A stretch of 30,000 nucleotides of DNA from NCBI RefSeq assembly GCF_000710775.1, contig NZ_JOJP01000001.1, positions 295,083 to 325,082 of the forward strand, in the 5' to 3' direction. Below the pieces are notes generated by a model. It searched no databases, was not told the origin of the DNA, and worked only from the letters and a program-made list of their open reading frames with translations. This document shows, piece by piece, positions 4,562 to 22,900 of the stretch. Position numbers and translations under genes: made by a program. Position 1 is the stretch's first letter; each line of letters starts with the position of its first letter. Source of the stretch: Endozoicomonas elysicola. GTDB taxonomy: Bacteria > Pseudomonadota > Gammaproteobacteria > Pseudomonadales > Endozoicomonadaceae.

Positions 4562-5218
4562 CTAATCTGCCTGAAGCAATAAGCTTGGCAGCGCTTCCAT
4601 ATTCGCAAATCGGGTTACCAGTGGATGATTTACCGGTTCGGAATGTTCATCCCTGCAGTAATGGAAAACAGGGATACCTGCATTGATACCTGCCATCACG
4701 CCAGGTACGGAGTCTTCGACCAGAACGCATTTTCCCAAATTGACGCCCATGCCTTTTGCAGCATAAGCCAGTAATCCAGGGTCTGGCTTCCAACAATTAG
4801 CATCAAATGCACTGAACAGCTTTCCTTCAAATCTTGGCAGTAGCCCGGTCAGCCCCAGAGTATGTTCCATCTTGCTGGCCGGCCCATTGGATGCCACACA
4901 GATGGGCATCTGGATCTTCTCCAACATCAGAGGTACACCATTCACAGGTGTCAGATATTTATCAAACAGTTGTCGCAACTCTTCCCGATACTCTTTCTCA
5001 AGCTCTGCCAAATTAAGAGACAGATGATGATCACCACAGATGGCTGTCAGGATCTCCACCATCTTGCCGCCTTTGTATTTAGTCAGGCACTCTTCCAGCG
5101 TGATTAGAGCACGGTAGCGGGTAAAAACATTGACCAGTCCCTGGTTACACAAAATCTCGCTATCGACGAGTGTTCCATCACAGTCGAAGATTACACACTC
5201 AATGGTTTTTGGGGTCAT
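4562..5218 (-). CDS. HAD-IA family phosphatase, YieH (6-phosphogluconate phosphatase)-like
   Basis: 218 aa. HAD motif I is FDCDGTLVDSE and the late motifs are VASNGP ... WKPDP ... VEDSVPG. The protein is colinear with my recollection of E. coli YieH (FFDCDGTLVDSE, VVSNGP, WKPDP, VDDSVAG). Confidence 0.8.
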   Translation of the reverse strand: MTPKTIECVIFDCDGTLVDSEILCNQGLVNVFTRYRALITLEECLTKYKGGKMVEILTAICGDHHLSLNLAELEKEYREELRQLFDKYLTPVNGVPLMLEKIQMPICVASNGPASKMEHTLGLTGLLPRFEGKLFSAFDANCWKPDPGLLAYAAKGMGVNLGKCVLVEDSVPGVMAGINAGIPVFHYCRDEHSEPVNHPLVTRFANMEALPSLLLQAD

Positions 5219-5253
5219 TTCAAAAGTTTTTTATCTACTGAAGTTACAATAAT

Positions 5254-5280
5254 GCCCATATAGCAGGTGACTATATGGGC
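5254..5280 (-). terminator. Candidate rho-independent terminator ending the cai-fix transcription unit
   Basis: Perfect 10-bp stem GCCCATATAG / CTATATGGGC (5254-5263 and 5271-5280) with a 7-nt loop. It lies 26 bp downstream of the caiE stop. On the minus-strand transcript it is followed by AUUAUUGU, so the U-tract is only moderate. Confidence 0.5.
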
Positions 5281-5305
5281 ACCAAATACGTTGTAACAAG
5301 CTCTA

Positions 5306-5902
5306 TCAGGCTGATATTTTAGGCTTCACGTCAGTGGTACCCATCAGCCGAGGTCGGTTCAACTCCATTTCAACCAATGGCATCACCTCTTTCATGGTTT
5401 TGCCAGAGCGGATGGCCAGGTCCTGATACTCTTTGGTATTCAAACCTTTCCAGTGCATATCCTGATCAGACACCTGACGAACCGGTTTGGCCGGTGAACC
5501 AATCAAAAGCTGTCTTGCTTCACCCTGAAAGCCAGCTTTCACAAAACTCATGGCCGCTACAATGCTCTCTTCCCCGATAACAGCACCGTCCATTACCACC
5601 GAGTTCATGCCAACCAGTGCATTTCGACGGATGACACAACCGTGAAGAATAGCGCCATGGCCGATATGTCCATCACGTTCGACAACCGTGTCCATATCGC
5701 AGTAGCCATGCATTACACAGCCATCCTGAAGGTTGGCACCCTCCTCCAGAATCAAGCGACCATAGTCGCCTCTCAGACTGGCAACAGGGCCAATATAAAC
5801 ACCCGGCCCGACAATCACATCACCAATCAACACCGCGGTTGGATGGACATAGGCAGTAGGGTCTACCACCGGTACCAGTCCTTCAAACTCATAACAGGGC
5901 AT
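5306..5902 (-). CDS. caiE: Carnitine operon protein CaiE (hexapeptide-repeat / gamma-carbonic-anhydrase-like fold)
   Basis: 198 aa. [49 protein letters not shown] ... [17 protein letters not shown] ... NRPRL.GTTDV.PK tracks my recollection of E. coli CaiE nearly residue for residue. An AAGGGAG RBS lies 8 nt upstream of the ATG at 5902. Confidence 0.9.
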
Positions 5903-5919
5903 TTCGATAACTCCCTTAA

Positions 5920-6014
5920 AAAACGCTGCCCGTCACCCGCTGCCCGCTTCCCGTATAAGCGAAGGTTATCCTGGCTTTTACGGACGACGGGCAGCGGGAG
6001 GCGCGTAGCGTTTT
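5920..6014. repeat. Intergenic imperfect-palindromic element, copy A (REP/MITE-like)
   Basis: Lies between the fixX stop and the caiE start. The outer arms are AAAACGCT (5920-5927) / AGCGTTTT (6007-6014). A perfect 11-bp inner stem is CCCGCTGCCCG (5936-5946) / CGGGCAGCGGG (5988-5998). A further CCGTA.AAGC / GCTTTTACGG pairing follows. It shares the CCCGCTGCCCGCTTCCCGTAxAAGC core with copies at 9495-9578 and 22822-22898. Confidence 0.75.
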
Positions 6015-6022
6015 AAAATTAC

Positions 6023-6310
6023 TCAGCCGTAGCGGAACTCAATACCAAAGGTACCCTGTGGGTAGTGCCATTTTTTGATAATGGTGTCACCACAGAGAAT
6101 ACGACAGGTACCACACTCCAGGCAGCCAGCGGAGTCAAAATGGATATTGCCATTTTCGTCACGCTTATAAAGACCAGCAGGGCAGGCAGCTTCCAGCTTG
6201 GCAAATTCTGCCGGATCCGGATTCTCAACCAGTTCGATATGAGGATTGCCTTCATCAACAAAGAATTTGTTAATGCCCAGCTTTACATCAACATTGACCT
6301 TCTCGCTCAT
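6023..6310 (-). CDS. fixX: Ferredoxin-like protein FixX
   Basis: 95 aa. NVDVKLG.NKF.VDE..PHI ... CPAGLYK ... GCLECGTCRI ... P.GTFG.EFRYG matches remembered E. coli FixX. The start overlaps the fixC stop (ATGA at 6307-6310). Confidence 0.9.
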   Translation of the reverse strand: MSEKVNVDVKLGINKFFVDEGNPHIELVENPDPAEFAKLEAACPAGLYKRDENGNIHFDSAGCLECGTCRILCGDTIIKKWHYPQGTFGIEFRYG

Positions 6311-7593
6311 AGCGCAGTCGCTCCCTTGAAGCCATCTTTAATCAGGTTCATGAAACCGGCCTGCTTCAGGTGAGGCATCACAATTTTCCGCAGTGGAGCA
6401 GAAGTGCCGTTCATGGTGTAAAGGTCTTTCATGATGCCGGTCATCATGGTTGGATACTGGTTAAACATTCTTGGGTTATCCAGGAAGCCGGGAACCTTCT
6501 TATAGAGCTGAAGGTCTTTCATCACAAAGCTGTTATCCAGCGTTGTTTTGTAGGAGGCCAGACCCGCTTCACTGAAGTCGCCCGCCTCTTTAGCCTTGAT
6601 GATGGCATTGGCAGCTGCTTCACCGGAGGCAATGGCCAGGTCCATTCCCCGAATGGTAAAGCCAATATTCAGACAGAGACCTGCGGCATCACCGGCAATC
6701 AGAACGCCATCACCCACCATCTTCGGCACCATGTCATAACCACCTTCCGGTACAACGTGGGCAGAATATTCTACGGTCTTACCACCAGCGATCAGCGGCT
6801 TAACGGTTGGATGATTTTTGAAGTCTTCCATCATCTGAGGAATGCTTTTGCTGACCTTGTCAATGTTATGCAGACCAAACACCAGCCCCAGAGAAACGCT
6901 GTCTTCATTGGTGTACAGGAAGCCACCACCCATCTGGCCATCAGAAGGTGAGCCAACAAACAGCCAGGCAGCACCTTCATTATCCATGCAACCAAAACGA
7001 TCATTGATCTGCTGGCGGCTCAGCTCAATGACTTCCTTAACACCCACACCGGTGTTGTGTGCATTTACACCGGTCACCATGCCCAGCTTCTGGCCCAGCA
7101 TGGAGTTCACACCATCGGCAAGAAGCACAACATCGGCTTCCATCTCTTCGCCACCGGCAATAACACCACAGACCTTACCGTCGCGAACAATCAGATCATC
7201 AACATGAACACCCGGAACAATGCTGGCACCTTCAGATTCAGCTTGTTCTGCCAGCCACTGATCAAATTTTGAACGCAGCACAGCATAAGAGCGACTGCCT
7301 GGATCTGCGGCTTCAGGGCTTGCATAGTCAAGCGTCACACTGCTGCTGCCATCCATAAAAGAGACCTTCTCATGGACAATGCAGCGCTCAACAGGAGCTT
7401 CTTCAGCAAAGTTGGGGAAGATTTTCTCGATACTGTGGGCATAAAGGCGACCACCGGTCACATTCTTTGACCCTGGAAAGTTGCCCCGTTCAATAACCAG
7501 TGTTTCCAGACCGGCCTTGGCTAACAGGTACGCACTGATGCAACCGGCAAGTCCTGCCCCGACAATGATTACATCAAATTTATCTTCGGACAT
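6307..7593 (-). CDS. fixC: Electron-transfer-flavoprotein:quinone oxidoreductase-type flavoprotein FixC
   Basis: 428 aa. The N-terminal FAD dinucleotide fold is KFDVIIVGAGLAGC. The length and the position between fixB (plus an insert) and fixX are as in E. coli fixABCX. A GAGGGGA RBS lies upstream of the ATG at 7593. Confidence 0.88.
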   Translation of the reverse strand: MSEDKFDVIIVGAGLAGCISAYLLAKAGLETLVIERGNFPGSKNVTGGRLYAHSIEKIFPNFAEEAPVERCIVHEKVSFMDGSSSVTLDYASPEAADPGSRSYAVLRSKFDQWLAEQAESEGASIVPGVHVDDLIVRDGKVCGVIAGGEEMEADVVLLADGVNSMLGQKLGMVTGVNAHNTGVGVKEVIELSRQQINDRFGCMDNEGAAWLFVGSPSDGQMGGGFLYTNEDSVSLGLVFGLHNIDKVSKSIPQMMEDFKNHPTVKPLIAGGKTVEYSAHVVPEGGYDMVPKMVGDGVLIAGDAAGLCLNIGFTIRGMDLAIASGEAAANAIIKAKEAGDFSEAGLASYKTTLDNSFVMKDLQLYKKVPGFLDNPRMFNQYPTMMTGIMKDLYTMNGTSAPLRKIVMPHLKQAGFMNLIKDGFKGATAL

Positions 7594-7671
7594 GGTGTCC
7601 CCTCACTTCTAACGATATGCACCTGGTAGTGCAATTCCATTTATTGATTAAACTTTTCCGGCCCACGCTGT

Positions 7672-9270
7672 TTATTGGCTTAAAAGAGCGTTATATGGGA
7701 TGGCCCAGTAATAGATAAGAAAGGTGGAAACCAATACCCCGGCAGCCACCATAATCCAGCCGTAGTAGCGACTTCTGACATACTCTGCCGCCACCGTTTC
7801 TGATGCGGGTATCTGGTGAATTTTGTCCTGGTAAGTAATCTCTTCGATGGTCTTGGTCTGGCCTTTTGAGCCCCAGATACCAAGCACGATACTGATGGCT
7901 ACGCCAATAAAGAAAGGATCAAAAAGATTAACCAATGGCACACCGGCCAGCTCTTTAAGCAGCTTAGCGACCATATACCCAAAGAAACCGCCCGCCATGG
8001 CCAGGTAAGCGCCACGTTCTGTCAGCTTCTTACTCCAGACACTGGCAAAAGCAACGTAACCCCAGGATGCCGCGATGATCGTGCTGGCAAACCAGGCAAT
8101 GACACGGATACTGGCCATATCCATACTGGCAATCATCAGTGACAGTAAACTGACCAGCAGCATCATCCCACGGGTGAAGCGCAGTTGTGATTTCTCACTG
8201 GCAAACTTGATATTCAGAATATCGCTGGACAGGCTGAAGCCCACCACCGACAGAAAAGTACATGCTGAAGTAAGACCGGCAGTCAGAATACCCGCGAGCA
8301 GAGCTACACCCACCAGCGGAGGCATTAACTCCATGGCAGCCCAGATCATGACCTTTTCAGGCTGATCCATCGCTGGATTCACAGGAATGACACTGATGGA
8401 CATCAGATAGAGGTAGAGCAGAAAAATTACCGTCAGCAGCGCCATCATCACACTGGAGCGCAGAATCACATGTTCATTTCGCGCCATCAGGTTCCGGCCA
8501 GCCTGCCAGGGGCTGACGGCAACGGTTACCAGCCAGATAATGCCCATGGTGATGCCGTAAAACACCATATCAAACTCGGAGCCACCACGAGGGTTACCGT
8601 GGTAATCCAGCAGTCCCGGTGGCGTTTCTGGATTACGGGCCAGCGTATCAAGCAGATTCTCAAGACCACCTGCGGCTTCAAATACATAAGGCCCGGCAAA
8701 GATCGTGATGCCCAGGAAGAACAGGCACATAACGGTGTCTGTCAATACGCTTCCACGAGCACCGGAATAGAAGGTAAACAGGGTGATGCCGACCCAGGCA
8801 ATCAAAAGACAGGTTATACGACTGTAACCAGTTAATGTTTCCATCAGCAGGCCGGTACCCTGTAGAACACTGATCAGATAAGCGAACAGGGAGGCTACCG
8901 TAATCATGGCAGCCAACCGGCGAATACGAAGGCTGTTAAACCGATTAGAAAAATAGGTAGGCATGGTATTAACCATGGCCCTGCGAATATAGCGACCAAA
9001 AAACAGGCCACCGATCACATACCCTCCGGCACAGAGCGTATTCAGTAAAAGCATGGTGGTAATGTTGCCACCGTAGCTGAAAGCGGTATCCCCCATAAAC
9101 CCATTAGTACTGAGCATGGAGGCAAATAAGGTGCAGGTAATAAATAACGTGGGAGCATTGCGACCGCAGACATAATAATCATCAATGCCTTTAACCTTCA
9201 TTCCGGCGTATGCACCAATCAACACGAATACAACAATGCTGACAAGAACGCCGGCGGCATAAATACTCAT
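7672..9270 (-). CDS. Sodium:solute symporter (SSS) family transporter, substrate unknown
   Basis: 532 aa and almost entirely hydrophobic, with about 13-14 predicted TM segments. The N-terminal region (VFVLIGAYAGMKVKGIDDYYVCGRNAP) resembles the SSS family (PutP/PanF/ActP-like) entry motif. It is embedded between fixB and fixC on the same strand. Confidence 0.7.
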   Translation of the reverse strand: MSIYAAGVLVSIVVFVLIGAYAGMKVKGIDDYYVCGRNAPTLFITCTLFASMLSTNGFMGDTAFSYGGNITTMLLLNTLCAGGYVIGGLFFGRYIRRAMVNTMPTYFSNRFNSLRIRRLAAMITVASLFAYLISVLQGTGLLMETLTGYSRITCLLIAWVGITLFTFYSGARGSVLTDTVMCLFFLGITIFAGPYVFEAAGGLENLLDTLARNPETPPGLLDYHGNPRGGSEFDMVFYGITMGIIWLVTVAVSPWQAGRNLMARNEHVILRSSVMMALLTVIFLLYLYLMSISVIPVNPAMDQPEKVMIWAAMELMPPLVGVALLAGILTAGLTSACTFLSVVGFSLSSDILNIKFASEKSQLRFTRGMMLLVSLLSLMIASMDMASIRVIAWFASTIIAASWGYVAFASVWSKKLTERGAYLAMAGGFFGYMVAKLLKELAGVPLVNLFDPFFIGVAISIVLGIWGSKGQTKTIEEITYQDKIHQIPASETVAAEYVRSRYYGWIMVAAGVLVSTFLIYYWAIPYNALLSQ

Positions 9271-9494: not shown

Positions 9495-9578
9495 CGCTTT
9501 CCGCAACCCGCTGGCCGCTTCCCGTAAAAGCATATGTCTTATCTTTTTCGGGGAGCAGGCAGCGGAGACCGGACGGCG
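9495..9578. repeat. Intergenic imperfect-palindromic element, copy B (REP/MITE-like)
   Basis: Lies between the fixB stop and the small ORF start. The sequence is CGCTTTCCGCAACCCGCTGGCCGCTTCCCGTAAAAGCATATGTCTTATCTTTTTCGGGGAGCAGGCAGCGGAGACCGGACGGCG. It is near-identical in its core to copy C. About 19 of 23 positions pair between the arms CCGCTGGCCGCTTCCCGTAAAAG and CTTTTTCGGGGAGCAGGCAGCGG. Confidence 0.75.
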
Positions 9579-9591: not shown

Positions 9592-10539
9592 TTATTTCTC
9601 GCCAAACGCAGCAGTCAGTGCTGGCACGATCTTGTAAAGATCGCCAACAATGCCGTAGTCCGCGTATTGGAAGATCGGAGCATTTTTGTCCTTGTTCACT
9701 GCAACAATCACCTGGGCACTGTTGGCAGCAACCATGTGCTGGATCTGTCCGGAAATACCCAGTGCCAGATACAGTTCTGGTTTTGGCATCACACCGGAGA
9801 TACCCACATAACGCTCTTGCTCCAGCCACTTCTCGCTCTCAGCGATTGGACGGGAACAACCCAGCTCAGCATCAATGGCAGCACCCAGGGCTTCAGCCAT
9901 GGCAATGTCTTCTTTCTTGGCAATACCACGGCCGATACTAACGATACGCTTGGCCTTACCCAGGTCTACCTGAGTAGCCTGCTTAGGCTGACGCTCCAGA
10001 CACTTGATGGCTGCTTTTGGTGCAACGAATTCAACGTTGATGGTTTCACCGGTTCTGGCAGCGTCTTCGCTTTCAGGTGCAAATACACCACCACTGACAA
10101 CCATCACGGCAAACGGAGAAGCCACTTTCTCCTGACCGTGGGCGAGACCACCGTAAACCATGCGCTTACCGGTAACACCACCGTCTTCAACGGTCACGTC
10201 ATACGCTTCAGTTACCACACCCGCCTTCAGCTTAACGCCCAGCAGTGAAGCCAGAGCCTTACAGCAGCGAGTGCCTGGCAGCAGAATCAATGCAGAATCG
10301 GCAGCTTCAGAGATGGCCTTGGCCATGGTGTCAGCGTAATCTTCAACAATGCGTGAAGTTTCTCTGGCACCCAGCAGATAAACTTTGTCAGCACCCTGGG
10401 CGTAAGCTTTTGCTACATCACCATCTGTGCCAATAACAAAGGCAGAAACCGTATCACCCAGTTCGCGGGCACCGGCAAGTACTTCTGCCTGACGGGATTC
10501 GACGTCGCTGAAAACCCAAACGTTTGCAATCTTACTCAT
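9592..10539 (-). CDS. fixB: Electron transfer flavoprotein alpha subunit FixB
   Basis: 315 aa. The C-terminal ETF-alpha FAD-binding signature is PELYLALGISGQIQH..G...A..IVAVNKDKNAPIF..ADYGIVGDL. It follows fixA after an 11-bp gap. Confidence 0.9.
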   Translation of the reverse strand: MSKIANVWVFSDVESRQAEVLAGARELGDTVSAFVIGTDGDVAKAYAQGADKVYLLGARETSRIVEDYADTMAKAISEAADSALILLPGTRCCKALASLLGVKLKAGVVTEAYDVTVEDGGVTGKRMVYGGLAHGQEKVASPFAVMVVSGGVFAPESEDAARTGETINVEFVAPKAAIKCLERQPKQATQVDLGKAKRIVSIGRGIAKKEDIAMAEALGAAIDAELGCSRPIAESEKWLEQERYVGISGVMPKPELYLALGISGQIQHMVAANSAQVIVAVNKDKNAPIFQYADYGIVGDLYKIVPALTAAFGEK

Positions 10540-10550: not shown

Positions 10551-11330
10551 TCAATTCAGAATTTTACGCAGGTGGCTTACCAGCTCAGCGATTTGATCTT
10601 CACCGTCGCCTTCAATCATGACGTTGAGGCGTTCTTTCTGCTTGGGTGCTTTGGTTTCCAGCAATTCAACCGATGCTGCACCCTGCGCCACGCCCAGCGC
10701 TGATGGTGTCATCGTACCTACTGGCTTCTTACCGGCAGCCAGAATGGCCTTCATGCCAGGAATCGCAGGGGTGTTGATGTCTGCAGAAACAGAGATAACG
10801 GCAGGCAGAGTGACTTCCAGCACTTCCACTTCACTTTCCAGTGCACGCTCAACCACCAGTTTGCCGTTGTTCGCGGAAACAATTTTGCTGACGCCGCTCA
10901 GGGTGGCGACATCCAGCAGTGCACCCAGACGGGTACCGACCTGCTGAGCCAGAAGGTCTCCGGAACCGTCACCACACAGGATCAGGTCAAAGCCAATCTC
11001 TCTGGCGGCAGTTGCCATCACTTCGGCCGTCTGCTCTGGAAGCAGATGCGTATAGGCATCATCCATAACCGCAGTCATGGCGTCAGGACCGCGGGACAAG
11101 ATGTCCTTACGGGCCTTGCTGTTTTCCAGTGTCTTGTCACCCACGCTCAGAGCGGTGATGTGGGCTTCACCCACCAGGCCTTTTACTTCAACAGCTGCTT
11201 CAATAGCATTCAGATCAAATGGGCTGATCTTTGGCGTTGCACGGCTAACGTCCAGTGAGCCATCGGCCTGTACAACGATATCCTGCTCTTCAGGTACCAG
11301 TTTGCATCCAACAATAATTTTCATAGTCAT
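10551..11330 (-). CDS. fixA: Electron transfer flavoprotein beta subunit FixA
   Basis: 259 aa. MKIIVGCKLVPEEQDI ... ALSVG ... RKD.LSRGPD ... GFDLILCGDGS.DL.AQQVG ... IEGDGE.QIA is colinear with remembered E. coli FixA. Confidence 0.9.
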   Translation of the reverse strand: MTMKIIVGCKLVPEEQDIVVQADGSLDVSRATPKISPFDLNAIEAAVEVKGLVGEAHITALSVGDKTLENSKARKDILSRGPDAMTAVMDDAYTHLLPEQTAEVMATAAREIGFDLILCGDGSGDLLAQQVGTRLGALLDVATLSGVSKIVSANNGKLVVERALESEVEVLEVTLPAVISVSADINTPAIPGMKAILAAGKKPVGTMTPSALGVAQGAASVELLETKAPKQKERLNVMIEGDGEDQIAELVSHLRKILN

Positions 11331-11418
11331 TCAGCTTTCTACCTAAACTGCCCGGAGCACTCTGCCCCGGACATACTTCAAAACGACCTCTGCTCACCGG
11401 AACAGAGGGTATGCATCT

Positions 11419-12270
11419 TTATTTCCACTCAGCGAGGGCGTAATTCAGATATGCGATTTCTGGATCGTTGGCATCAATCACACGGAAGTGGATGGAGTTG
11501 TCATCCCACTTCCACATCTGGGTCTTGATGGTGCAGCCTGGGTACAGAGACTTGGTAATCCGAGTCTTGAAGCGGGTCAGGCGCTCAGGCTCACCAGGCA
11601 ACAGCGTGTTGATGATGTGACGGCAGGCAAAACCGGCAGTACTTACTGCATGCAGGTTTGGCTTGGGATGGTCAAACTTCTGGGCATATTCCCAGTCAAT
11701 GTGCTGAGGATGGTAGTCACCATTCAAACGGTAAATGATGGCCTGGTTCAGAGGCACCTGTTCCACAACTTCAAAGTCAGGCTCTCTCTCAGGAATCTCA
11801 ACAATATCCGCTGGTGCTTTTGGACCACCGAAGCCACCGTCGTACAGACAGCAATCCCAGCTTTCATTGGTAAACAGCAGGGTGCCATCTTCATCAAAGG
11901 TCTCGCCAATATGCTGAGCCAGACAGCCACGACCTGGACCACGGTCATAAAGACCTTTCAGTAATACTTTGGTGCTGAGTTTGCCAGACAGCTTGGTCAG
12001 CGGCTGATGGAACTGAAGATCAAAGCCCCAGTGGAGGGAACCACCCCACTCAAAACCAAAGTCGATGGTTTTGGTGACTTCGCTGTCCACAATCGGCATG
12101 GCAGCAAACATCGGCAGAATTTTCTGATTCTTTTCGTAAACGTACTCAAGATCAGTCTTGCCATCGGCACCGGCACCACAGCCCAGGCCAAAGATAATCA
12201 GTTCACGGAAGTCATATTCCCGTTCAAAAGGGCCGTATGTTTTGCCCTGCATATCCAGTTTTAAAGCCAT
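11419..12270 (-). CDS. Double-hot-dog (R)-specific enoyl-CoA hydratase-2 / MaoC-like protein, catalytic motif intact
   Basis: 283 aa. It is colinear with the hydratase-2 domain of eukaryotic MFE-2 as I remember it. Shared blocks are GGFGG, LNQA.IYRL.GD..P.HID (here YRLNGDYHPQHID, D185/H190), KP.LH...T.GF..R, and R.K.R....YPG.T..T.MWK....IHF. Codon 185 is GAC at 11716-11718. Confidence 0.8.
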   Translation of the reverse strand: MALKLDMQGKTYGPFEREYDFRELIIFGLGCGAGADGKTDLEYVYEKNQKILPMFAAMPIVDSEVTKTIDFGFEWGGSLHWGFDLQFHQPLTKLSGKLSTKVLLKGLYDRGPGRGCLAQHIGETFDEDGTLLFTNESWDCCLYDGGFGGPKAPADIVEIPEREPDFEVVEQVPLNQAIIYRLNGDYHPQHIDWEYAQKFDHPKPNLHAVSTAGFACRHIINTLLPGEPERLTRFKTRITKSLYPGCTIKTQMWKWDDNSIHFRVIDANDPEIAYLNYALAEWK

Positions 12271-12311
12271 CGTCGTACTCCTGACGAAATTAATTTTTCA
12301 GTCGTTCGCCT

Positions 12312-13163
12312 TTATTGCCACTCAGCCAAGGCAAAATTCAAAAGAATGGTTTCAGGATTGTTGGCATCGACTACACGGAAGCGAACGGACTGGTCAGGCA
12401 TTTCCCAGACCTGAGTGCGCACATCCATTCCCGGATAGCTGACGCCGGTAAAACGAAGTTTGAAACGCTTCATGCGTTCGGGACGACGTCCCATAAACTG
12501 ATTAGTGATGTGTCTGAATGCCAGACCCGCCAGACCGAGGCCCATATAGAAAGGCTTTTCGTAACCAAACTCCTTGGCATATTCCCAGTCAGCGTGCAGG
12601 TGGTGATAGATACCAATCAGACGGAAAACCAGGGCACTGTTCAGGTTCAGGTGGTCATCAAATTCAAAGTCAGGGGCACGATCCGGCATCTCCACGATGT
12701 CCTGTGGTGCTTTAGGCCCACCAAAACCACCGTCGTATAGACAGATATCCCAGTTATCGATGGTCAGCAGTTTGTTGCCATCCTCATCGAAGGTTTCTCC
12801 GGTTTTCTGTGCCAGGCAGCCTCGGCCTTCACCTCGATCGTACAGACCGGTCAGAGTAATATTGGTGGTCAGCTTGCCTGCCTTTTTGACAAAGGGGTGA
12901 TGGAATTTCATATCAATCCCCCAGTGCAGAACACCATCCCAGTTAAAACCGAAATTAATATCCTCGGTTACTTTGTCGGACGCATCGATAGTCGCCAGAA
13001 AGACAGGGTTTACCTTGAGGTCTTTTTCAAATGCCCAGTCCAGGTCGGTTTTACCATCCTGAGCGGCACCACTGCCCACCCCGAAAGCCAGCAGATCATT
13101 CAGGTCATACTGAGTTTCATAGGGTCCATATACCTTACCTACCAGATCTGTATTAATCGTCAT
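12312..13163 (-). CDS. Double-hot-dog MaoC/hydratase-2-like paralogue with degenerate catalytic motif
   Basis: 283 aa. It aligns gaplessly with the downstream paralogue at about 50% identity by eye (25 of the first 50 residues). The hydratase-2 motif position reads FRLIGIYHHLHAD. The catalytic Asp is replaced by Ile185 (ATC at 12609-12611), and the following P.LH block reads PFYMG. Confidence 0.78.
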   Translation of the reverse strand: MTINTDLVGKVYGPYETQYDLNDLLAFGVGSGAAQDGKTDLDWAFEKDLKVNPVFLATIDASDKVTEDINFGFNWDGVLHWGIDMKFHHPFVKKAGKLTTNITLTGLYDRGEGRGCLAQKTGETFDEDGNKLLTIDNWDICLYDGGFGGPKAPQDIVEMPDRAPDFEFDDHLNLNSALVFRLIGIYHHLHADWEYAKEFGYEKPFYMGLGLAGLAFRHITNQFMGRRPERMKRFKLRFTGVSYPGMDVRTQVWEMPDQSVRFRVVDANNPETILLNFALAEWQ

Positions 13164-13279
13164 GGTTTTGCTTCCGCGTCTATCGATATGTTTGTTTTTT
13201 ATTCATCACATGCTGATGACAATCAGCATGCACACCATTCATCAAAAACCCGCATCAGACTTGTTCAACACATTCACTC

Positions 13280-14932
13280 TTAATTCAGTACGGTATCCAC
13301 CCTGATTTCAGCTGTGTGATTCCGGTTAATCAGATAATTCTCAACTTGCTGGAATTCAGATCTGGAAAGCACTTCTTCTTTCAATACATTTTTCTGTACT
13401 TTTCCTGTACAGGTTCTTGGAAACTCTGTTCTGAATTCCACATGGGCTGGCACTTTAAAAGCCGCCATATGGGTTGAACAGAATTCAAGAATTTCTTCAG
13501 TGCTTAATGTTTCACCTTCTTTAAGAATGACAAACGCGTTAACCACTTCGTCATACATTTCATCTGGAATACCGATAACGGCGGCTTCAATAATTTTGGG
13601 ATGGCAGACCAGTGCATTTTCAATTTCAGAGCTGGAAATATTTTCGCCGGAGCGCTTAATCAAATTGACATTACGGTCAACAAAATAGAAATAGCCGTCT
13701 TCATCCATGTAGCCGCTATCACCGGTATAAAGCCAACCATGACTGTCCAGTGCTTTTGCTGTTGCTTCCGGGTTGTTGTAATACTCTTTAAACAGCGTTT
13801 TTCCTGGTTCACCCTTGATGACAATTTCACCGGTGGTATTTGGTGTTGCTTCGTTACCCTGATCATCGACAATTTTGATTTCGTAGCAGAATCCGGGTCT
13901 GCCAATGGATGGCCAGCGACGCTCATAGCCGGGGGTATCACCCAGATTGCCAACGATGGTTTCGGTCATGCCATAAGACGTCAGCAGCCGTACACCAAAG
14001 CGCTCTGAAAACTGATCTTTTTCCAGCTCAGAAAGTGTCAGATAAAACATAACCTCCCGCAGACAGTGGCCCTTCTCCCAGGCTCTCTCTGGCTGCAGCA
14101 TGAGGGTGCGAATCATCAGCGGAATACATTCGGTCACGGTTGCCCGGTAATGGCAGATCTGACTCCAGAAGCGAGATGCACTGTACTTCTCTATCAGGAT
14201 CAGCGTGGCGCCTGAGGCAAACGTTGGCATCGCTGCAGTACATTGAAAATCAATGTGGCAGGCTGGCATGGTGCTCAGGTACCGGTCTTCTGAACGCAGA
14301 GAGCATAACCAGGAGGTATATATTCCGGAAAAGTTAAGGTTGTAGTGCGTAATCACCACACCTTTTGGTCGAGACGTTGTGCCCGACGTAAAAATAATCT
14401 CTACTGGATCACTGCTGTCTAAAGGAACTGTTTTTTCAAGTGTTGTTGATTGCTTTCTTAACAGGGCACCAAAATTCAAAGTACCAGCAGGTTCTTCATC
14501 TTCTTCAATTCGTGTGATCAGGATGTGCTCAAGAGGAATGCCATCCTTCTGGCTGATTTCCTGATAAAGAGAAACAAACTGCTTCTCAACAATGACCGTT
14601 TCTACCTGGCATTTCTTCAGAATATAGCTGGCTTCGTGGTGCAGGGACTGCACATTAATCGGAACGGTAATGGCTCCAATTTTCGCCAGACCAAACCAAC
14701 TCATTAAAAATTCAGGGCTGTTGAATAACTGGGTAGCAACCCGGTCACCCTTTTTAACGCCCAGTTTCAGAAAGAGGTTTGCAGCCTGATTTATCTGATG
14801 ATTAAACTCAGCGTATGAAAGTTCACTGGTTTTACCTGATACATCTTCAAAGACAATGGCTGTATTTTCAGCATACGCTTGAGCCAGCCGATCCCATGTA
14901 TCACGTAAATTTTTATTGCCAACCAAGTCCAA
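13280..14932 (-). CDS. caiC: Crotonobetaine/carnitine-CoA ligase CaiC (ANL adenylating enzyme)
   Basis: 550 aa. FTSGTTSRPKGVVITHYNL, YRATVTECIP.MIRTLM.QP, GVRLLTSYGMTETIVG and GW..TGD.GY.DE.G.FYFVDR match remembered E. coli CaiC. A TTG start at 14932 is supported by the N-terminal alignment MDLVGNKNLR vs MDIIGGQHLR and by a GAGGTG RBS. The protein carries a C-terminal tail of about 30 aa that the remembered E. coli protein lacks. Confidence 0.88.
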   Translation of the reverse strand: MDLVGNKNLRDTWDRLAQAYAENTAIVFEDVSGKTSELSYAEFNHQINQAANLFLKLGVKKGDRVATQLFNSPEFLMSWFGLAKIGAITVPINVQSLHHEASYILKKCQVETVIVEKQFVSLYQEISQKDGIPLEHILITRIEEDEEPAGTLNFGALLRKQSTTLEKTVPLDSSDPVEIIFTSGTTSRPKGVVITHYNLNFSGIYTSWLCSLRSEDRYLSTMPACHIDFQCTAAMPTFASGATLILIEKYSASRFWSQICHYRATVTECIPLMIRTLMLQPERAWEKGHCLREVMFYLTLSELEKDQFSERFGVRLLTSYGMTETIVGNLGDTPGYERRWPSIGRPGFCYEIKIVDDQGNEATPNTTGEIVIKGEPGKTLFKEYYNNPEATAKALDSHGWLYTGDSGYMDEDGYFYFVDRNVNLIKRSGENISSSEIENALVCHPKIIEAAVIGIPDEMYDEVVNAFVILKEGETLSTEEILEFCSTHMAAFKVPAHVEFRTEFPRTCTGKVQKNVLKEEVLSRSEFQQVENYLINRNHTAEIRVDTVLN

Positions 14933-15111
14933 TGTAACACCTCATCGCTGAGCAATTCGCCTGCAAACCCCGGTTATTTATTCAAGGCATTCGGGTAGCT
15001 GCCGGAAAATCAGACGGTCTTTTCCGACAGTTCACCAAAATGCGCTCTTGCCCAGTTCACTCTTTCAAGTTCGGCTTTTAAAAAGCCAGCCAATAATCAA
15101 ACGTTCGTCGT

Positions 15112-16329
15112 TTAATCAGCCAGCTTGACGGCACCGACTTCTGCCAGAGCATGGATCTCCTGATCCGAGTATCCGAGATCACTCAGAATACTTGCGGTGT
15201 CCATACCCCGTGATGGTGTGCTCCGCCAGATCTGTCCTGGGTTTTTGGTAAATTTAGGAACAATGTTTGAACCCTTGCACTTACCACCAGACAGCGTGTC
15301 CCACTCAACAATGTTTTCGCGGGCGATGTACTGTGGGTGGCTTTCCAGTTCAGGAATGGTCAGCACACGGGTCGCAGCGATGGTCATGGACTCCAGCAGC
15401 TCCAGCGTTTCATCGATGGTTTTCTCACCGAAGAATGCATCCAGCTTGTCTTCCAGAATCTGCCCCTGAGAACTATCAGCACGAATACCAGGAATACCTT
15501 CAGGAAACTCGTCAGTGCCCAGAATGTGGGTATGATCCAGAACCTCAAGCAACCTTCGGATCTGTGGACCACCTACCCAGGACATGGTGATACAGCCGTC
15601 ATTACAGCGATAAACGCCACAACCTACCTGAGTTGGATCCTTACCTTTGGTTGTGCGGGGATAGAGCGTGCCGTTATTGAAGTAGTCGATCATGTAATAG
15701 TGGCTGACTCGCAGCAGAGCCTCATACATGGCAACGTCAACACTTTCACCTTCCCCGGTTCTTTTAGCATTGTGAAGTGCCGCCAGGGCGGAACTCAGCA
15801 CCATGAAGCCGCTGATGTAGTCACCAGAGTATGGGAATGCAGGTACTGGCTGATCACCATCACCGTTCTGAACCAGGTAACCACTGAATGCCTGGGCAAT
15901 GTGGTCATAAGAAGGCAGGTTGATGTACTGATCTTCACCGTACTGGCCATAACCTGATAGATGCACAATAACCAGCGACTTGTTGTGTTCCCACAGCAGT
16001 TCATCGGTCATACCACGGCGTTTGAAGGCTGGTCCTTTACTGGACTCGATAAAGATATCGGTGGTTTCCATCAGCTTGAGGAATGCTTTCTTGCCTTCCT
16101 CAGAGAAGATATCGATGGACAGACTGTGCAGATTACGGCGCGCCAGCTCGCGGTAATTTTTCATTACCCGGATGGTATCGGGATATTTGGTGTGCTCGAT
16201 CCAGATAACTTCTGCACCCCATTCCGCCATCATCTGGGCTGGAAATGGGCCAGCAATTTCAAGCGCTGAAAAAACAACCCGGACCCCGTGCAAAGGGCCA
16301 AATTCCGGTGTAGACACCTTGTTGGACAT
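15112..16329 (-). CDS. caiB: L-carnitine/gamma-butyrobetainyl-CoA:CoA transferase CaiB (family III CoA-transferase)
   Basis: 405 aa. FGPL.G.RVVFS..EIAGPF..QM.AEWGAEVIWIE, FLKLMETTDIFIE.SKGPAF.RRG and VPELES.PQY.ARE.I..W....G...KG.NI.PKF..NPGQIWR..PS.GMDTA.IL are essentially colinear with remembered E. coli CaiB. Confidence 0.92.
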   Translation of the reverse strand: MSNKVSTPEFGPLHGVRVVFSALEIAGPFPAQMMAEWGAEVIWIEHTKYPDTIRVMKNYRELARRNLHSLSIDIFSEEGKKAFLKLMETTDIFIESSKGPAFKRRGMTDELLWEHNKSLVIVHLSGYGQYGEDQYINLPSYDHIAQAFSGYLVQNGDGDQPVPAFPYSGDYISGFMVLSSALAALHNAKRTGEGESVDVAMYEALLRVSHYYMIDYFNNGTLYPRTTKGKDPTQVGCGVYRCNDGCITMSWVGGPQIRRLLEVLDHTHILGTDEFPEGIPGIRADSSQGQILEDKLDAFFGEKTIDETLELLESMTIAATRVLTIPELESHPQYIARENIVEWDTLSGGKCKGSNIVPKFTKNPGQIWRSTPSRGMDTASILSDLGYSDQEIHALAEVGAVKLAD

Positions 16330-16417
16330 TATTCATTCCCCCGCTAAGCAATATATTCACCTTCAGAAAGGTAACCCCGCAGGGTCAGCCCTTTCCAAAG
16401 GTTCAGTTAACGACAGA

Positions 16418-17554
16418 TTAACGATACTTTTTCAGTACCTGGCGACCGAGAGTCAGAATCTGCATTTCGTCAGATCCACCGGAAACACGGTCAACCCGCA
16501 GGTCACGCCAGAAACGTCCAACGCGATGTCCAGTGATACCGATACCGCCCAGTACCTGCATGGCAGAGTCCACTACTTCGAAGGCAGCATTGGCACAGAA
16601 GTATTTACACATGGCAGCGTCACCGGAGTTCACAGTGCCGTTGTCGCACTTCCATGCAGTTTCATAAACCATGTTCTTCATGGCGTTCAGTTTGATCGCC
16701 ATGTGAGCAAATTTTTCCTGGATCAGCTGAGTACGACCGATGGCTTCACCAAACTGGATACGCTGGTTTGCATACTTGGCAGCGTCTTCAAAGGCGCACA
16801 GGGCAACACCGTAGTTGGTGCAGGCTACCAGGAAGCGTTCAGCATCAAACTCTTCCTTAACACGGTTGAAGCCGTTGCCTTCAGAGCCAAACATGTCCTT
16901 CTCTTCCAGCTCAACGTTATCGAAAATCACTTCGCAGCAGCTGTCCATGCGCAGACCGATCTTGTCCAGTGGGTTCAGCTTGATGCCAGCCTTGCTCATA
17001 TCCACGAACCACTCGGAGAAGACCGGTGAGTCTGGAGAAGCAGAGTCGCGGGCCATCACCACCAGGTAAGGACAGTGGGAGCTACTGGTGATAAAGCACT
17101 TGTGACCGTTCAGGTAAACTTTGCCATCCTTGCGGGTGTAAGTGGTTTTCAGACTACCTACGTCAGAACCGGCACTTGGCTCAGTAATGGCGGAGTTCCA
17201 CATTTGTTCGCCAGTGCCGCGCAGAGCAAAAATCTTGTCGATCTGTTCCTGGGTACCATGACGCAGCATGGTATTGAAACCAGGCAGCTGATACAGAACG
17301 TAGGTAGGCGCACCGTGACGCCCAAGCTCTTCCCAGATAGCGGTCAGAGTAACCAGACCAGCATCCATACCGTCGTGTTCTTCTGGCAGCAGCATTGTGT
17401 CGATGCCCAGTTCAGCCAGAGCCTTCACCCAGCGCAGTGGGTATTCGTGCTTTTCGTCACATTCAACGAAGTAGGCTTCCCAGTTCTCTCTTTCCATCAG
17501 TTCGCGGACACCCGCAACAAACAGTTCCTGCTCGTCAGATAAATTAAAATCCAT
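16418..17554 (-). CDS. caiA: Crotonobetainyl-CoA reductase CaiA (acyl-CoA dehydrogenase family)
   Basis: 378 aa. [60 protein letters not shown] and [63 protein letters not shown] are a very close match to remembered E. coli CaiA. Confidence 0.93.
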
Positions 17555-17604
17555 GTCTAATACTCTTCTTACTTAATTGACTATTGCTTCACTGAAAAAC
17601 GGAT

Positions 17605-19119
17605 TTACCAGCGATTCTTTTTGGCATCTTTCAGGAATGCCCAGATAACCAGAATATTTACGATGGCCAGTGGCGCGCCCCCTGCGATGATTGCTGTCTG
17701 CAGAGGCTTCAGGCCACCCAGAGCAAGCAGGGTAATACCCAGAATCCCCACCAGTAGAGACCAGCCAAGTCGAATCCACAGTGGTGGTTCGTCGTAACCA
17801 GTCGCTTCCTTACAGGTAGACATGGCCAGGGTGTAAGAACAGGCGTTTACCAAGGTGATCGTGGCCAGGAAACAGAGCACCAGGAAGACACCGATGGTGA
17901 AGGTGCTGAGTGGCAATGTTGCCCAGATTTCGATAATGGCCCGTGGTACATCGTTCTCACTGATGATGGTGCTGATATCCAGCAGTCCCTTGTGCATAAC
18001 CTCAACGGTATAGCTGCCGAGGATGCCCCAGAGTGTCCATGTGGTCAGAGTCAGACCGCCCACCATGCCCAGACAGAGTTCACGTACCGTTCTGCCCTTG
18101 GAGATACGGGCAAGGAAGATGCACATCTGGATGCCGTAAATCATCCACCAGGCCCAGTAGAAGACGGTCCAGTTCTGAGGAAAACCACTCTCACCGATGG
18201 CATCGGTATAGAACAGCATCCTGCCGGCATTCATCAGGAGAACACCAAAGGAGTCGGTGAAGTAATTCAGAATAAAGGTGGTACCACCAACGATCAGAAC
18301 CCAGGCAAGCACAAAGATACTCAGGTAGCTTCTCAGGTCACTGGCGATACGAATGCCTTTCTGAAGACCGAAGGCCACACAGATCGCGTTGAAAACAATA
18401 AGGAAAGAGATAATGGTCGCATCAACTTCCAGGCTACGCTCAATACCAAAAAGATACTCGATACACTCAGTAACCAGTGGTGTCGCCAGACCAAGACTGG
18501 TACCCATCGCCAGAATCAGCGCAACGATGTACAGGTTATCTACGAAGGTTCCAAAAAGGCCGTTACTGTGCTTTTCACCCACCAATGGTTCAATGGTCTT
18601 ACTGGGGCGAATAACATTGACCTTTTTCACATACAGGAAGTAGCCAAAAGCAACACTTAACAGACTGTAGGTTGCCCAGGGTAAAGGTCCCCAGTGGAAG
18701 AGAGAGTAGGCAACACCGTATTCTTTTGCCTGTTGAGAGAAAGGTTCGATACCGAATGGAGGCGTGAGGATATAGTAATAAACTTCAATCGTACCCCAGA
18801 AAAGTACGGCTGCCGACGTACACGAGGCAAACATCATGAAGATCCAGCTGGCAGTACTGAATTCAGGCTCTTCATCACCCAGCTTTTTATTGGCATAAGG
18901 ACCAAAGAGCAGCCAGAAATAGCCGCCCAGCATGATGACCATATACCACTCAAATGCCCAGGCCCATTTGTAGGTCACATATTGAAAGACCTGATTAATC
19001 ACCTGATTAGCGGCATCCAGGTCCCGAACCGTGAAATAAATCAATATGGCAACAATAGCTAACGAAGGTATTGCTATCTTCGTATCTATTCTTATTGCCT
19101 TTTTTGGTTCAGCATCCAT
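17605..19119 (-). CDS. caiT: L-carnitine/gamma-butyrobetaine antiporter CaiT (BCCT family)
   Basis: 504 aa. [74 protein letters not shown] and [28 protein letters not shown] match remembered E. coli CaiT throughout. An AGGGGGA RBS lies about 7 nt before the ATG at 19119. Confidence 0.93.
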
Positions 19120-19993: not shown

Positions 19994-20848
19994 TCAACCG
20001 TTTTCCTGGTCCTCCTGACGGCAAAGTAACCCCATCACCAGACATTGAGCCAAGTGCATAGAGGTACTCAATGAACGCATCCCCATCATTTCCGCTTCTT
20101 TAACCTGAAGCCCGTGGGTAATCACTTCTTTGCAGGGATGGATACTGTGATCGGTCAGAACCAGAGATGGACAATGACGCTCATGGGCAATCTGAATGCA
20201 CTCATTGGTCTCATCGGCATGTGGGTGGTAGCTGACTGCCAGCAGCAGGTCATTCTCAGTCAACCGCTTTAGCTGGTTTTTATGCATGGCACCCACACCA
20301 TCGAGCAAGATAACATCGACATCTGCTCGCATCAGGGCATAGCAAAGGTAATACGCAACCGGAAAGGCACGACGAGCACCGGTTACATAAATAATACGGG
20401 CACTACTCATCAGGCCGAGCGCTTTATCAAAATCTGCAGGAGAAATATCAATCGATAGGTTCTCGATCGCAAGACTCTGCGGCCCAGAAAAAGCATCCAG
20501 CAAATGATGACCTTCTTTAATGGCGCCAGTCATTTCCGAAGCGTGTCGAACCCTCTCACGGTAACCACTGACTTGTCCCTTCAGCTGGCTGCGATATAGC
20601 TGTTGTAGTTCAGAGAAACCGGCAAAGCCAAAAAAGTTGGCAAAACGCACCAGCGTTGAAGGCGACACATCAATCTCACGGGCAATAACCACCAGGTTTT
20701 CCAGTGCAACCGTATTGGGATTCTGAACAAAAAAATCCGCAACCAAACGCAGGCGCTTACTCATTGAGTCGTAGCGATTGATGATGTCACTTTTCAGTTC
20801 TTCAAGTGTTTGAGGTGTTGCTGGCTTCAGCTTGGTATTCATATTCAA
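19994..20848 (-). CDS. RpiR/MurR-family transcriptional regulator (HTH + SIS domain), probable inositol-catabolism regulator (IolR-type)
   Basis: 284 aa. The N-terminal RpiR HTH region is (S)MSKRLRLVADFFVQNPNTVALENLVVIAREIDVSPSTLVRFANFFGFAGFSELQ. The C-terminal SIS-like region is IIYVTGARRAFPVAYYLCYAL. It sits adjacent to the iol operon. RpiR-type IolR repressors are known in proteobacteria. Confidence 0.8.
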   Translation of the reverse strand: MNMNTKLKPATPQTLEELKSDIINRYDSMSKRLRLVADFFVQNPNTVALENLVVIAREIDVSPSTLVRFANFFGFAGFSELQQLYRSQLKGQVSGYRERVRHASEMTGAIKEGHHLLDAFSGPQSLAIENLSIDISPADFDKALGLMSSARIIYVTGARRAFPVAYYLCYALMRADVDVILLDGVGAMHKNQLKRLTENDLLLAVSYHPHADETNECIQIAHERHCPSLVLTDHSIHPCKEVITHGLQVKEAEMMGMRSLSTSMHLAQCLVMGLLCRQEDQENG

Positions 20849-21011
20849 TGACTTGTACTTGGTAATGGATCAAATGTGGATTCAGCCCTGCATATGCTTG
20901 GTAAAGAGCAGCAAAAACAATCCCTGACTCAATCCATCACCTATTTATACTCTCTTCTTTATTTAGACGGTCGCCACGGCAACCGTATTATATACACACT
21001 TGTGTATAAAA

Positions 21012-21854: not shown

Positions 21855-21939
21855 GGTCTTTCCACCTGAATAATGAGAGTGGGAAGTACTGCAGGCTACC
21901 TTACCCCCTACTGCAGTACCCCCAAATTGTCACAGCCAT

Positions 21940-22785: not shown

Positions 22786-22821
22786 GTTTAACTCTTTCCC
22801 GGAGTGGTTTTTTAAGCCTTC

Positions 22822-22898: not shown

Positions 22899-22900
22899 TC

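Follow-up and report, generated by a model that had tools for sequence, protein, structure and literature searches.

A double hot-dog hydratase-2 homologue as candidate replacement of CaiD in the carnitine cluster of Endozoicomonas elysicola, and its paralogue without the catalytic aspartate

A window of 30,000 nucleotides (30 kb) from Endozoicomonas elysicola (contig NZ_JOJP01000001.1, positions 295,083 to 325,082) carries a cai/fix gene cluster with two genes for MaoC-type proteins, denoted MaoC_up and MaoC_dn. They start at the slot directly after caiC, which caiD takes in the E. coli order caiT-A-B-C-D-E. We consider it probable that MaoC_dn is the carnitinyl-coenzyme A (CoA) dehydratase of the cluster and that MaoC_up is a non-catalytic or specificity-modifying partner. 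The putative replacement of CaiD by MaoC_dn is well supported by comparative genomics. The genes and motifs concerned are the following.

12312..13163, minus strand: MaoC_up, double hot-dog hydratase-2 paralogue without the catalytic Asp (PF01575; AlphaFold (AF2) model)
12594..12614, minus strand: degenerate hydratase-2 motif GIYHHLH of MaoC_up with Ile at the Asp position (from the translation)
11419..12270, minus strand: MaoC_dn, double hot-dog hydratase-2 homologue with intact dyad, candidate carnitinyl-CoA/crotonobetainyl-CoA (de)hydratase (PF01575 and PF22622)
11701..11721, minus strand: catalytic motif GDYHPQH of MaoC_dn (from the translation and the alignment to 1s9c)

The initial annotation, made from the sequence alone, had placed two proteins of 283 amino acids between caiC and fixA, and the minus-strand open reading frames (ORFs) lie exactly at 11419-12270 and 12312-13163. 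It had put their identity at about 50% without gaps and described their DNA as diverged. The alignment gave 54% amino acid identity with 0 gaps and 62.7% DNA identity, and the synonymous sites were saturated (dS of about 1.5). A full-length match to the hydratase-2 domain of MFE-2 was confirmed as well, both proteins aligning nearly end to end on the human structure 1s9c (E = 7e-33 for MaoC_dn and 1e-22 for MaoC_up) with 27-29% identity to MFE-2. Of the sequence blocks said to be shared by the copies, GGFGGPKAP is present in both, while LNQA.IYRL.GD..P.HID and YPG.T..T.MWK occur only in MaoC_dn.

The fold was checked with profile hidden Markov models and structure prediction, as the annotation had proposed. 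PF01575 was found in both proteins. The N-terminal model PF22622 (MFE-2_hydrat-2_N) was passed by MaoC_dn, while MaoC_up scored 22.3 bits, which is under the cutoff of 27. The AlphaFold models superposed on 1s9c with a template modeling (TM) score of 0.80 for MaoC_dn and 0.90 for MaoC_up; the latter had a root-mean-square deviation of 2.0 Å and a predicted local distance difference test score of 89. The likeness extends to the hydratase 2 structure 1pn2 and the bacterial R-hydratase 3khp, which share the double hot dog (TM 0.80-0.91 over all comparisons). Both proteins are hydratase-2 homologues over their full length, with a double hot-dog fold of an N-terminal non-catalytic and a C-terminal catalytic half. 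NCBIfam had no model for either of them. In public databases members of the subfamily are often named MaoC/PaaZ or '3-alpha,7-alpha,12-alpha-trihydroxy-5-beta-cholest-24-enoyl-CoA hydratase'. The bile-acid name, inherited from similarity to MFE-2, is almost certainly wrong for these bacteria.

The hydratase-2 motif is [YF]-x(1,2)-[LVIG]-[STGC]-G-D-x-N-P-[LIV]-H. MaoC_dn reads YRLNGDYHPQH, keeping Asp and His, with His in the place of Asn and Gln at the [LIV] position. In the alignment of GDYHPQH to human SGDWNPLH, Asp185 and His190 correspond to Asp510 and His515 of human MFE-2, and Glu46 corresponds to Glu366. Among 102 sequences of the clade of MaoC_dn (dn clade) D185 and H190 were conserved to 100% and H207 to 99%; E46 was invariant in alignments of 25 and 28 sequences. 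MaoC_dn thus resembles MFE-2 hydratase 2 in having Asp and His in the same motif together with the equivalent of Glu366. It differs in a signature private to its subfamily, which reads GDYHPQHIDW against GDxNPLHxDP and includes the invariant residues Asp139, Glu170, Tyr195, Arg217-His218, Arg233 and Lys235, acidic and aromatic additions among them. The HxDW part was found in no more-distant hydratase-2 relative. The oxyanion-hole Gly of 'LHG' is Ala ('LHA') in most subfamily members. Further differences from MFE-2 hydratase 2 are that the window proteins are free-standing bacterial proteins locked to cai genes and that MaoC_up is without the Asp.

The subfamily is sharply bounded. It comprises more than 100 clusters at 90% identity, which are 56-92% identical to MaoC_dn, and a further clade at 47-52%; identity to generic hydratase-2 proteins then falls sharply, to about 37% or less. 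At 50% identity the family makes up about one cluster among 1.84 billion representatives. The dN/dS of MaoC_dn was 0.015-0.05.

CaiT, CaiA, CaiB and CaiC of the window pass their NCBIfam equivalog models, and CaiA has 81% identity to its E. coli counterpart. Therefore the enoyl substrate available in this cluster should be crotonobetainyl-CoA. We propose that the cluster serves a CoA-dependent respiration from carnitine via crotonobetaine to gamma-butyrobetaine, with CaiT and a sodium:solute symporter (SSS) for transport and CaiC, CaiB, CaiA, FixABCX and CaiE as its further components. MaoC_dn would be an enzyme of the hydratase-2 type that catalyzes the dehydration between carnitinyl-CoA and crotonobetainyl-CoA. 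Within its C-terminal hot dog, Asp185 and His190 of the central helix would act as the acid/base pair on the C3 hydroxyl and the C2 hydrogen. His187 (Asn in the motif), Trp193 (Pro), Tyr195 and two newly gained acidic residues, Asp139 and Glu170, may fit the pocket to a trimethylammonium substrate; from their position beside the catalytic His we infer that the acidic and aromatic additions suit such a ligand.

Genomic linkage was examined in 80 genome loci encoding the subfamily, which were annotated against the proteins of the window and of E. coli. CaiC was present in 77 of them and the remaining three are cut by contig ends. The orthologue of MaoC_dn directly followed caiC in 61 loci with a median gap of 23 bp, caiD in 15 and an upstream paralogue in one. 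The carriers belong to at least six phyla. They include Endozoicomonas, Desulfovibrionales, Geopsychrobacteraceae, Shewanella, Ferrimonas, many Bacillota, Sutterella, Campylobacterales and a metagenome-assembled genome (MAG) of Dormibacterota, as well as many Actinomycetota (relatives of Cellulomonas, Propionibacteriales, Actinomyces/Schaalia, Trueperella and Arcanobacterium). A third clade, from Coriobacteriales, showed the same linkage to cai genes. In a plasmid search a single subfamily member was found, in Curtobacterium.

The public names MaoC/PaaZ and bile-acid enoyl-CoA hydratase and the 27-29% identity to MFE-2 would also agree with two ordinary R-specific enoyl-CoA hydratases of fatty-acid or polyhydroxyalkanoate metabolism which adjoin the cai genes by chance. 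Against this stand the linkage to caiC across six phyla and the private active-site signature, and no beta-oxidation genes were found near the pair within the window. We regard such a role as highly improbable, and a chance neighborhood is effectively refuted by the linkage data.

The pair had been taken for the only hydratase-like folds of the cluster, and this holds: no crotonase or CaiD homologue was present in any frame of the 30-kb window, no ECH_1 domain occurred among its ORFs, and tblastn searches with CaiD of E. coli and two further crotonases returned chance matches only. The initial annotation had further suggested looking at co-occurrence with caiABC in genomes that lack caiD. MaoC_dn orthologues do follow caiC in CaiD-less clusters, CaiD being absent from 65 of the 80 loci; this layout occurs in Desulfovibrionales, Bacillota, Actinomycetota, Sutterella, Campylobacterales and Dormibacterota. 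The reverse pattern was seen when metagenomes were scanned with a CaiA profile. The 80 loci kept from that scan were mostly E. coli-type caiTABCDE operons, which have CaiD and no MaoC. Two contigs (L093 and L095) encode a crotonase 42% identical to CaiD and no MaoC, with otherwise window-like content including the SSS. The scan yielded one further MaoC-type cluster (L094). None of the complete clusters examined was without a hydratase, be it of the hot-dog or of the crotonase fold, and this pattern is expected for analogous replacement. The gene order of L093 and L095, fixA-fixB-crotonase-SSS-caiT-caiA-caiB-caiC-fixC-fixX, represents a third architecture.

MaoC_dn thus shares with CaiD of E. 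coli and Proteus the slot directly after caiC, the pathway partners CaiT, CaiA, CaiB and CaiC, and the presumed reaction. It differs in having a MaoC double hot dog instead of the crotonase fold, and no sequence similarity to CaiD was detectable in the window. The relation is one of analogy, not of membership, and MaoC_dn would be an analogue of CaiD rather than a homologue. The original proposal of a hot-dog replacement of CaiD is well supported for MaoC_dn by linkage, conservation and complementary distribution. It does not extend to MaoC_up, which is without the catalytic Asp, and it is qualified by 15 operons that carry both folds (see below).

A crotonase encoded elsewhere in the genome, be it CaiD or a generic enoyl-CoA hydratase, might perform the dehydration, with MaoC as an accessory for side-product removal or for another betaine CoA ester. 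The genome is visible here over 30 kb only, a generic ECH_1 gene lies 4 kb away from the cluster in one locus of Coriobacteriales (L090), and CaiD and MaoC coexist in Shewanella. On the other hand, MaoC takes the position that caiD has in E. coli, following caiC in 61 of the 80 loci with a median gap of 23 bp; the clusters with a crotonase in cis (L093, L095) are without MaoC; and a caiD homologue is reported to be absent from Propionibacterium freudenreichii isolates (PMC11007987). We consider a crotonase elsewhere as the actual dehydratase quite improbable.

The P. freudenreichii data come from the pan-genome association study of Roder et al. (Genome Biol 2024; PMC11007987). In that study the carnitine chemistry of yogurt was altered by isolates in which the MFS-hydrolase-caiABC-...-fixABCX cluster is complete: acylcarnitines were depleted, and carnitine and putative gamma-butyrobetaine were raised (PMC11007987). 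The hydrolase of the cluster was statistically linked to the depletion of acylcarnitines, homologues of caiD and caiT were absent from the isolates, and an 'enoyl-CoA hydratase' was suggested to fill the CaiD gap (PMC11007987). Thus the replacement idea is not wholly new; it has already been proposed in print for an orthologue of MaoC_dn. That hydratase (P0351, WP_044635905.1) belongs to the subfamily and shares a 90% cluster with P0072. It has about 59% identity to MaoC_dn and the same motif, and its gene takes the same position right after caiC. The P. freudenreichii cluster differs from that of the window by a single MaoC copy, by MFS transporters in place of CaiT and by the presence of the esterase. 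The text of the study is without the term 'MaoC', and the fold, the stereochemistry and an Asp-less paralogue are not discussed there (PMC11007987). Our literature search for MaoC or hot-dog proteins in connection with cai genes or crotonobetainyl-CoA found nothing direct, and only this study touched the point.

An Abhydrolase_3 esterase homologous to the P. freudenreichii hydrolase was encoded within 10 kb in 53 of the 80 subfamily loci. Natural acylcarnitines are of the L-configuration; the esterase thus ties this type of cluster to L-carnitine as the substrate.

MaoC_up reads LNSALVFRLIGIYHHLHAD, and the catalytic Asp of the hydratase-2 motif is absent. In its motif, FRLIGIYHHLH, Ile occupies the Asp position. 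Within the clade of such proteins (up clade) this position is Ile in three Endozoicomonas including that of the window, Asn in Ferrimonas and Cys in two Campylobacterales. Additional positions that are at least 90% conserved in the dn clade are changed in the up clade (Y180F, Q189L, L206Y/H, H207M, S210G/A and S78V/I). Glu46, His187, His190, Tyr195, Arg217-His218, Arg233 and Lys235 are kept in MaoC_up. The up-type copy of Endozoicomonas sp. ex Bugula neritina AB1 (L174, 8123-8971) is 88% identical to that of the window, reads HADVEY and has lost Trp193. The idea of two hydratases in the cluster is therefore unlikely, as MaoC_up has lost not only the catalytic Asp but also several further polar residues of the active site; by its sequence MaoC_up is probably non-catalytic or chemically altered and not a second hydratase.

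The up clade was monophyletic in 100 of 100 neighbor-joining (NJ) bootstraps. Its position close to the base of the cai-linked subfamily agrees with an old duplication. It is rare, with at least four clusters at 90% identity among 5.8 billion proteins; the count is a lower bound, the AB1 sequence having been missed by the word-indexed protein search. In six out of six genomes with an up-type copy a dn-type copy was encoded in the same locus. The dN/dS of MaoC_up, 0.036 against the orthologue of an Endozoicomonas MAG and 0.049 against that of AB1, was the same as for the downstream copy. Because of these low values MaoC_up does not appear to be decaying. The view that both copies were maintained after an old duplication agrees with the saturated synonymous sites and the low dN/dS of both; it does not hold throughout the genus, as MaoC_up is absent from E. 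cretensis and E. atrinae.

We favor the view that MaoC_up is an old paralogue that has kept the fold and most of the ligand-binding signature of the subfamily, has most likely lost canonical hydration and probably serves as a non-catalytic or specificity-modifying partner, e.g. in a heterodimer with MaoC_dn. HadA and HadC with HadB of M. tuberculosis and ChsH1 with ChsH2 are known cases of non-catalytic hot-dog partners in heteromeric MaoC-type hydratases, in which single hot dogs pair. MaoC_up resembles HadA/HadC and ChsH1 in the partial loss of the dyad, the location of its gene beside that of a catalytic paralogue, the retained fold and the purifying selection. In contrast to these single hot dogs, both window proteins are already double hot dogs, and co-location of the genes is what suggests a partnership.

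Alternatively, MaoC_up may be an active enzyme with altered chemistry. It could catalyze a base-only beta-elimination of a leaving group that needs no protonation, for example the O-acyl group of acylcarnitinyl-CoA or the onium group of dimethylsulfoniopropionyl-CoA or beta-alanine-betainyl-CoA, or act as a dehydratase with another acid such as His187. The constraint on MaoC_up is strong and equals that on the catalytic copy, His190, Glu46 and His187 are retained, and the polar residues around the water site have become F, L, M, I or Y. The Ferrimonas up-type copy lies in an apparently complete second gene set (MFS, CaiB, BCCT, CaiA), that of the Campylobacterales directly follows an extra CaiB, and the independent Asn variant P0110 is paired with a CoA-transferase as a stand-alone unit. 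Yet, the clade has no fixed residue at the Asp position (I, N or C) and AB1 is without Trp193, which resembles relaxation of a catalytic site more than a conserved mechanism of a new kind; a separate pathway is not evident in Endozoicomonas, which has one CaiA and one CaiB. A role in acyl elimination predicted that MaoC_up substitutes for the acylcarnitine esterase and that the two genes exclude each other. This was rejected since loci L002 and L036 carry both. Altogether we rate an activity of its own as a possibility of modest weight, clearly less probable than the partner role.

As to the genes just mentioned, the second set of Ferrimonas (L082-L084) is located about 16 kb from the main cai operon, continues the fixABCX operon and consists of an MFS transporter, a second CaiB, the Asp-less MaoC and a second BCCT transporter, with a second CaiA-like protein (74% identical to E. 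coli CaiA) further on. It may represent a parallel pathway for a related substrate. The Asp was also lost independently elsewhere in the subfamily, in P0110 (L085-L087) and P0099, which have GN.. or GS.. motifs. P0110 forms a stand-alone pair with its CoA-transferase beside LuxR-type regulators, and caiA and caiC were not found within 10 kb.

Several points weigh against the proposed division of labor between MaoC_dn and MaoC_up. The Ferrimonas second set and the P0110 pair hint at an activity of MaoC_up of its own. A CaiD elsewhere in the genome is possible, as crotonases were searched for in the 30-kb window. The textbook chemistry of hydratase 2 may not hold for MaoC_dn, given the exchanges of Asn for His and of LHG for LHA in its sequence. 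Fifteen operons of Shewanella and Ferrimonas (L008-L020, L023, L037) have the order caiT-A-B-C-caiD-MaoC(-caiE) with a CaiD that is 83-89% identical to E. coli CaiD. In these operons strong purifying selection acts on both genes, as the median dN/dS was 0.017 for caiD and 0.031 for MaoC, similar to the values of caiA, caiB and caiC. The long retention of both proteins argues that they are not fully isofunctional and that their functions do not overlap entirely.

The last point is stereochemistry, which the simple replacement of CaiD put forward in the initial annotation left out of account. To our knowledge the products of all characterized hydratase-2/MaoC enzymes have the D-(3R)-hydroxyacyl geometry. 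L-Carnitine is R by the Cahn-Ingold-Prelog rules since CH2N+ outranks CH2CO; spatially it belongs to the L-(3S-like) series, as made by crotonases. The stereochemical preference expected of MaoC is thus opposite to that of CaiD. By our own reasoning, canonical hydratase-2 stereochemistry would yield D-carnitinyl-CoA, and the L-product needs attack on the opposite face of the double bond. Two possibilities follow: the MaoC_dn subfamily acts on D-carnitinyl-CoA, or it offers crotonobetainyl-CoA from the opposite face, which would be a first for this fold. Conservation of the subfamily in CaiD-less, esterase-bearing clusters makes the latter more likely.

If MaoC_dn were canonical, it would interconvert crotonobetainyl-CoA and D-carnitinyl-CoA and would not substitute for CaiD. 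Together with CaiD, for instance in Shewanella, it would then constitute a two-hydratase carnitine 'racemase', and the CaiD-less clusters would reduce only crotonobetaine. The model for such a racemase is the 3-hydroxyacyl-CoA epimerase activity that arises from hydratases 1 and 2. The D-(3R)-specificity of every characterized hot-dog hydratase known to us and the retention of CaiD plus MaoC in the 15 Shewanella/Ferrimonas operons speak for this, as does the literature, in which carnitine racemase activity has been described for E. coli and Pseudomonas (PMC2131755). On the other hand, the 65 CaiD-less clusters would have no use for a D-specific enzyme, yet the protein is strictly conserved there with a dN/dS of about 0.03. 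Moreover, we know of no natural occurrence of D-carnitine. Crotonase-only and MaoC-only clusters with otherwise identical content suggest that the two folds are equivalent, and the CaiD-less clusters often have an acylcarnitine-type esterase that would free L-carnitine (PMC11007987). A D-carnitinyl-CoA enzyme is thus unlikely.

As a bolder and tentative generalization, to which we give somewhat less than an even chance, the cai-linked subfamily would be a hot-dog L-carnitinyl-CoA dehydratase that is stereochemically inverted relative to all characterized hydratase-2/MaoC/FabZ-type enzymes. Many Actinomycetota, Bacillota, Desulfovibrionales, Sutterella and marine symbionts would have it as their true carnitine dehydratase, and the Asp-less paralogue would tune the system, either as a conserved pseudo-hydratase or as a base-only eliminase of a new kind.

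CaiB of Shewanella and Ferrimonas is 81-85% identical to E. coli CaiB, and CaiB of CaiD-less clusters 70% or less; by sequence, the type of CaiB seems to track the type of hydratase.

The loci closest to the window, with 95-97% DNA identity in the flanks, were those of E. cretensis, E. atrinae and the MAG chromosome of an Endozoicomonas. Compared to window positions 12276-16400, E. cretensis and E. atrinae (L001, L003) have, between caiA and MaoC_dn and enclosed by flanks of about 92-97% identity, a different caiB-caiC pair with 62-70% protein identity and no MaoC_up, and the window CaiB is of a different type from theirs. A divergent caiB-caiC pair and the lack of MaoC_up between near-identical flanks mean that the caiB-caiC-MaoC_up segment behaves as a cassette exchanged by recombination. 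In a first NJ tree the window CaiB grouped with the extra CaiB beside MaoC_up of Ferrimonas and Campylobacterales; with more sequences it grouped with clusters having only MaoC_dn, e.g. that of Enterobacillus. A strict CaiB2-MaoC_up module in the window was withdrawn after this larger tree. The MAG chromosome (L002) and AB1 (L174) share the two-MaoC layout. In the MAG chromosome caiC is split by a 1.4-kb insertion, and an IS66-family transposase lies between caiC and MaoC_up (5398-6790 and 7470-9070 of the locus). L001, L002 and L003 have an Abhydrolase_3 esterase between caiE and the haloacid dehalogenase (HAD) gene at about 17000-18175, 57% identical to the esterase of the Enterobacillus cluster. 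In the window only about 100 bp (5204-5305) separate the caiE-like and the HAD gene, and the esterase gene is missing there.

The cluster of the window is a run of minus-strand genes in the order caiT-caiA-caiB-caiC-MaoC_up-MaoC_dn-fixA-fixB-SSS-fixC-fixX-caiE-like-HAD hydrolase. Apart from the MaoC genes its features are listed below (ETF, electron-transfer flavoprotein).

17605..19119, minus strand: caiT, L-carnitine/gamma-butyrobetaine antiporter (BCCT); NCBIfam NF002887 equivalog, 836 bits (cutoff 541), 70% identity to E. coli CaiT
16418..17554, minus strand: caiA, crotonobetainyl-CoA reductase (acyl-CoA dehydrogenase family); NF002885 equivalog, 738 bits (cutoff 540), 81% identity to E. 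coli CaiA
15112..16329, minus strand: caiB, carnitine CoA-transferase (family III); NF002914 equivalog, 600 bits (cutoff 413), 59% identity to E. coli CaiB
13280..14932, minus strand: caiC, crotonobetaine/carnitine-CoA ligase; NF005947 equivalog, 848 bits (cutoff 651)
11387..11408, minus strand: terminator-like hairpin between the MaoC_dn stop codon and fixA; 9-bp stem with 5 GC pairs, then a T-rich tail, a consensus match only
10551..11330, minus strand: fixA (ETF beta-type subunit); NF002888, 359 bits (cutoff 219)
9592..10539, minus strand: fixB (ETF alpha-type subunit); PF00766 and PF01012, NF002889 at 401 bits, under the cutoff of 549
7672..9270, minus strand: sodium:solute symporter (SSS), inserted between fixB and fixC; PF00474
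6307..7593, minus strand: fixC (ETF-quinone oxidoreductase-like flavoprotein); NF007542, 623 bits (cutoff 610)
6023..6310, minus strand: fixX (ferredoxin-like); weak match to PF05187, 58% identity to E. coli FixX
5306..5902, minus strand: caiE-like hexapeptide-repeat protein; PF00132, 75% identity to E. coli CaiE

These genes belong to a cai/fix cluster by the CaiT, CaiA, CaiB and CaiC equivalogs and the FixA and FixC subfamily models, with FixB having the ETF domains. The equivalent of the catalytic Asp169 is present in the window CaiB. The hairpin at 11387-11408 may separate cai from fix transcription or attenuate it. Orthologues of the SSS with 59-67% identity occur in cai clusters of Desulfovibrionales and Campylobacterales and in the crotonase-type L093 and L095; in the window the SSS may be a second uptake route beside CaiT. 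A CaiF-like activator was found neither among the ORFs nor by tblastn in the window, therefore regulation must differ from the enterobacterial type. An Rfam scan of the window gave 0 matches. A GC-rich, REP/MITE-like imperfect palindrome of about 85 bp is present in two copies (9495-9566 and 22821-22898), has no Rfam match and is repeated several times in the E. atrinae locus. The flanks (19994-29936 and 178-4519) are unrelated to the finding and contain a myo-inositol catabolism cluster (RpiR-type regulator, class II aldolase, IolB-, IolC-, IolG-, IolD- and IolE-like proteins and a sugar transporter) and an RND efflux pair of a membrane-fusion protein and an AcrB-like pump.

If MaoC_dn is the dehydratase, catalogues of gamma-butyrobetaine producers that are defined by a complete caiTABCDE set, such as gammaBMGC (PMC11857547), would overlook many carriers. 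Among these would be Actinomyces/Schaalia, Trueperella, Arcanobacterium, Propionibacterium, Sutterella, Bacillus-like Bacillota and Desulfovibrionales, several of which live on humans or animals. This would bear on the axis from carnitine via gamma-butyrobetaine to trimethylamine and its N-oxide and on the recognition of carnitine-reducing bacteria in microbiome data. The case would be a clean analogous displacement between the crotonase and the hot-dog fold on a charged substrate, with a stereochemical puzzle attached; this question and the Asp-less paralogue constitute its main biochemical interest. MaoC_up would add to the conserved double hot-dog proteins that are probably non-catalytic. 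For biotechnology, MaoC_dn may offer an alternative hydratase for making carnitine from crotonobetaine. With regard to Endozoicomonas itself, the cluster suggests that carnitine of the host is respired by these bacteria.

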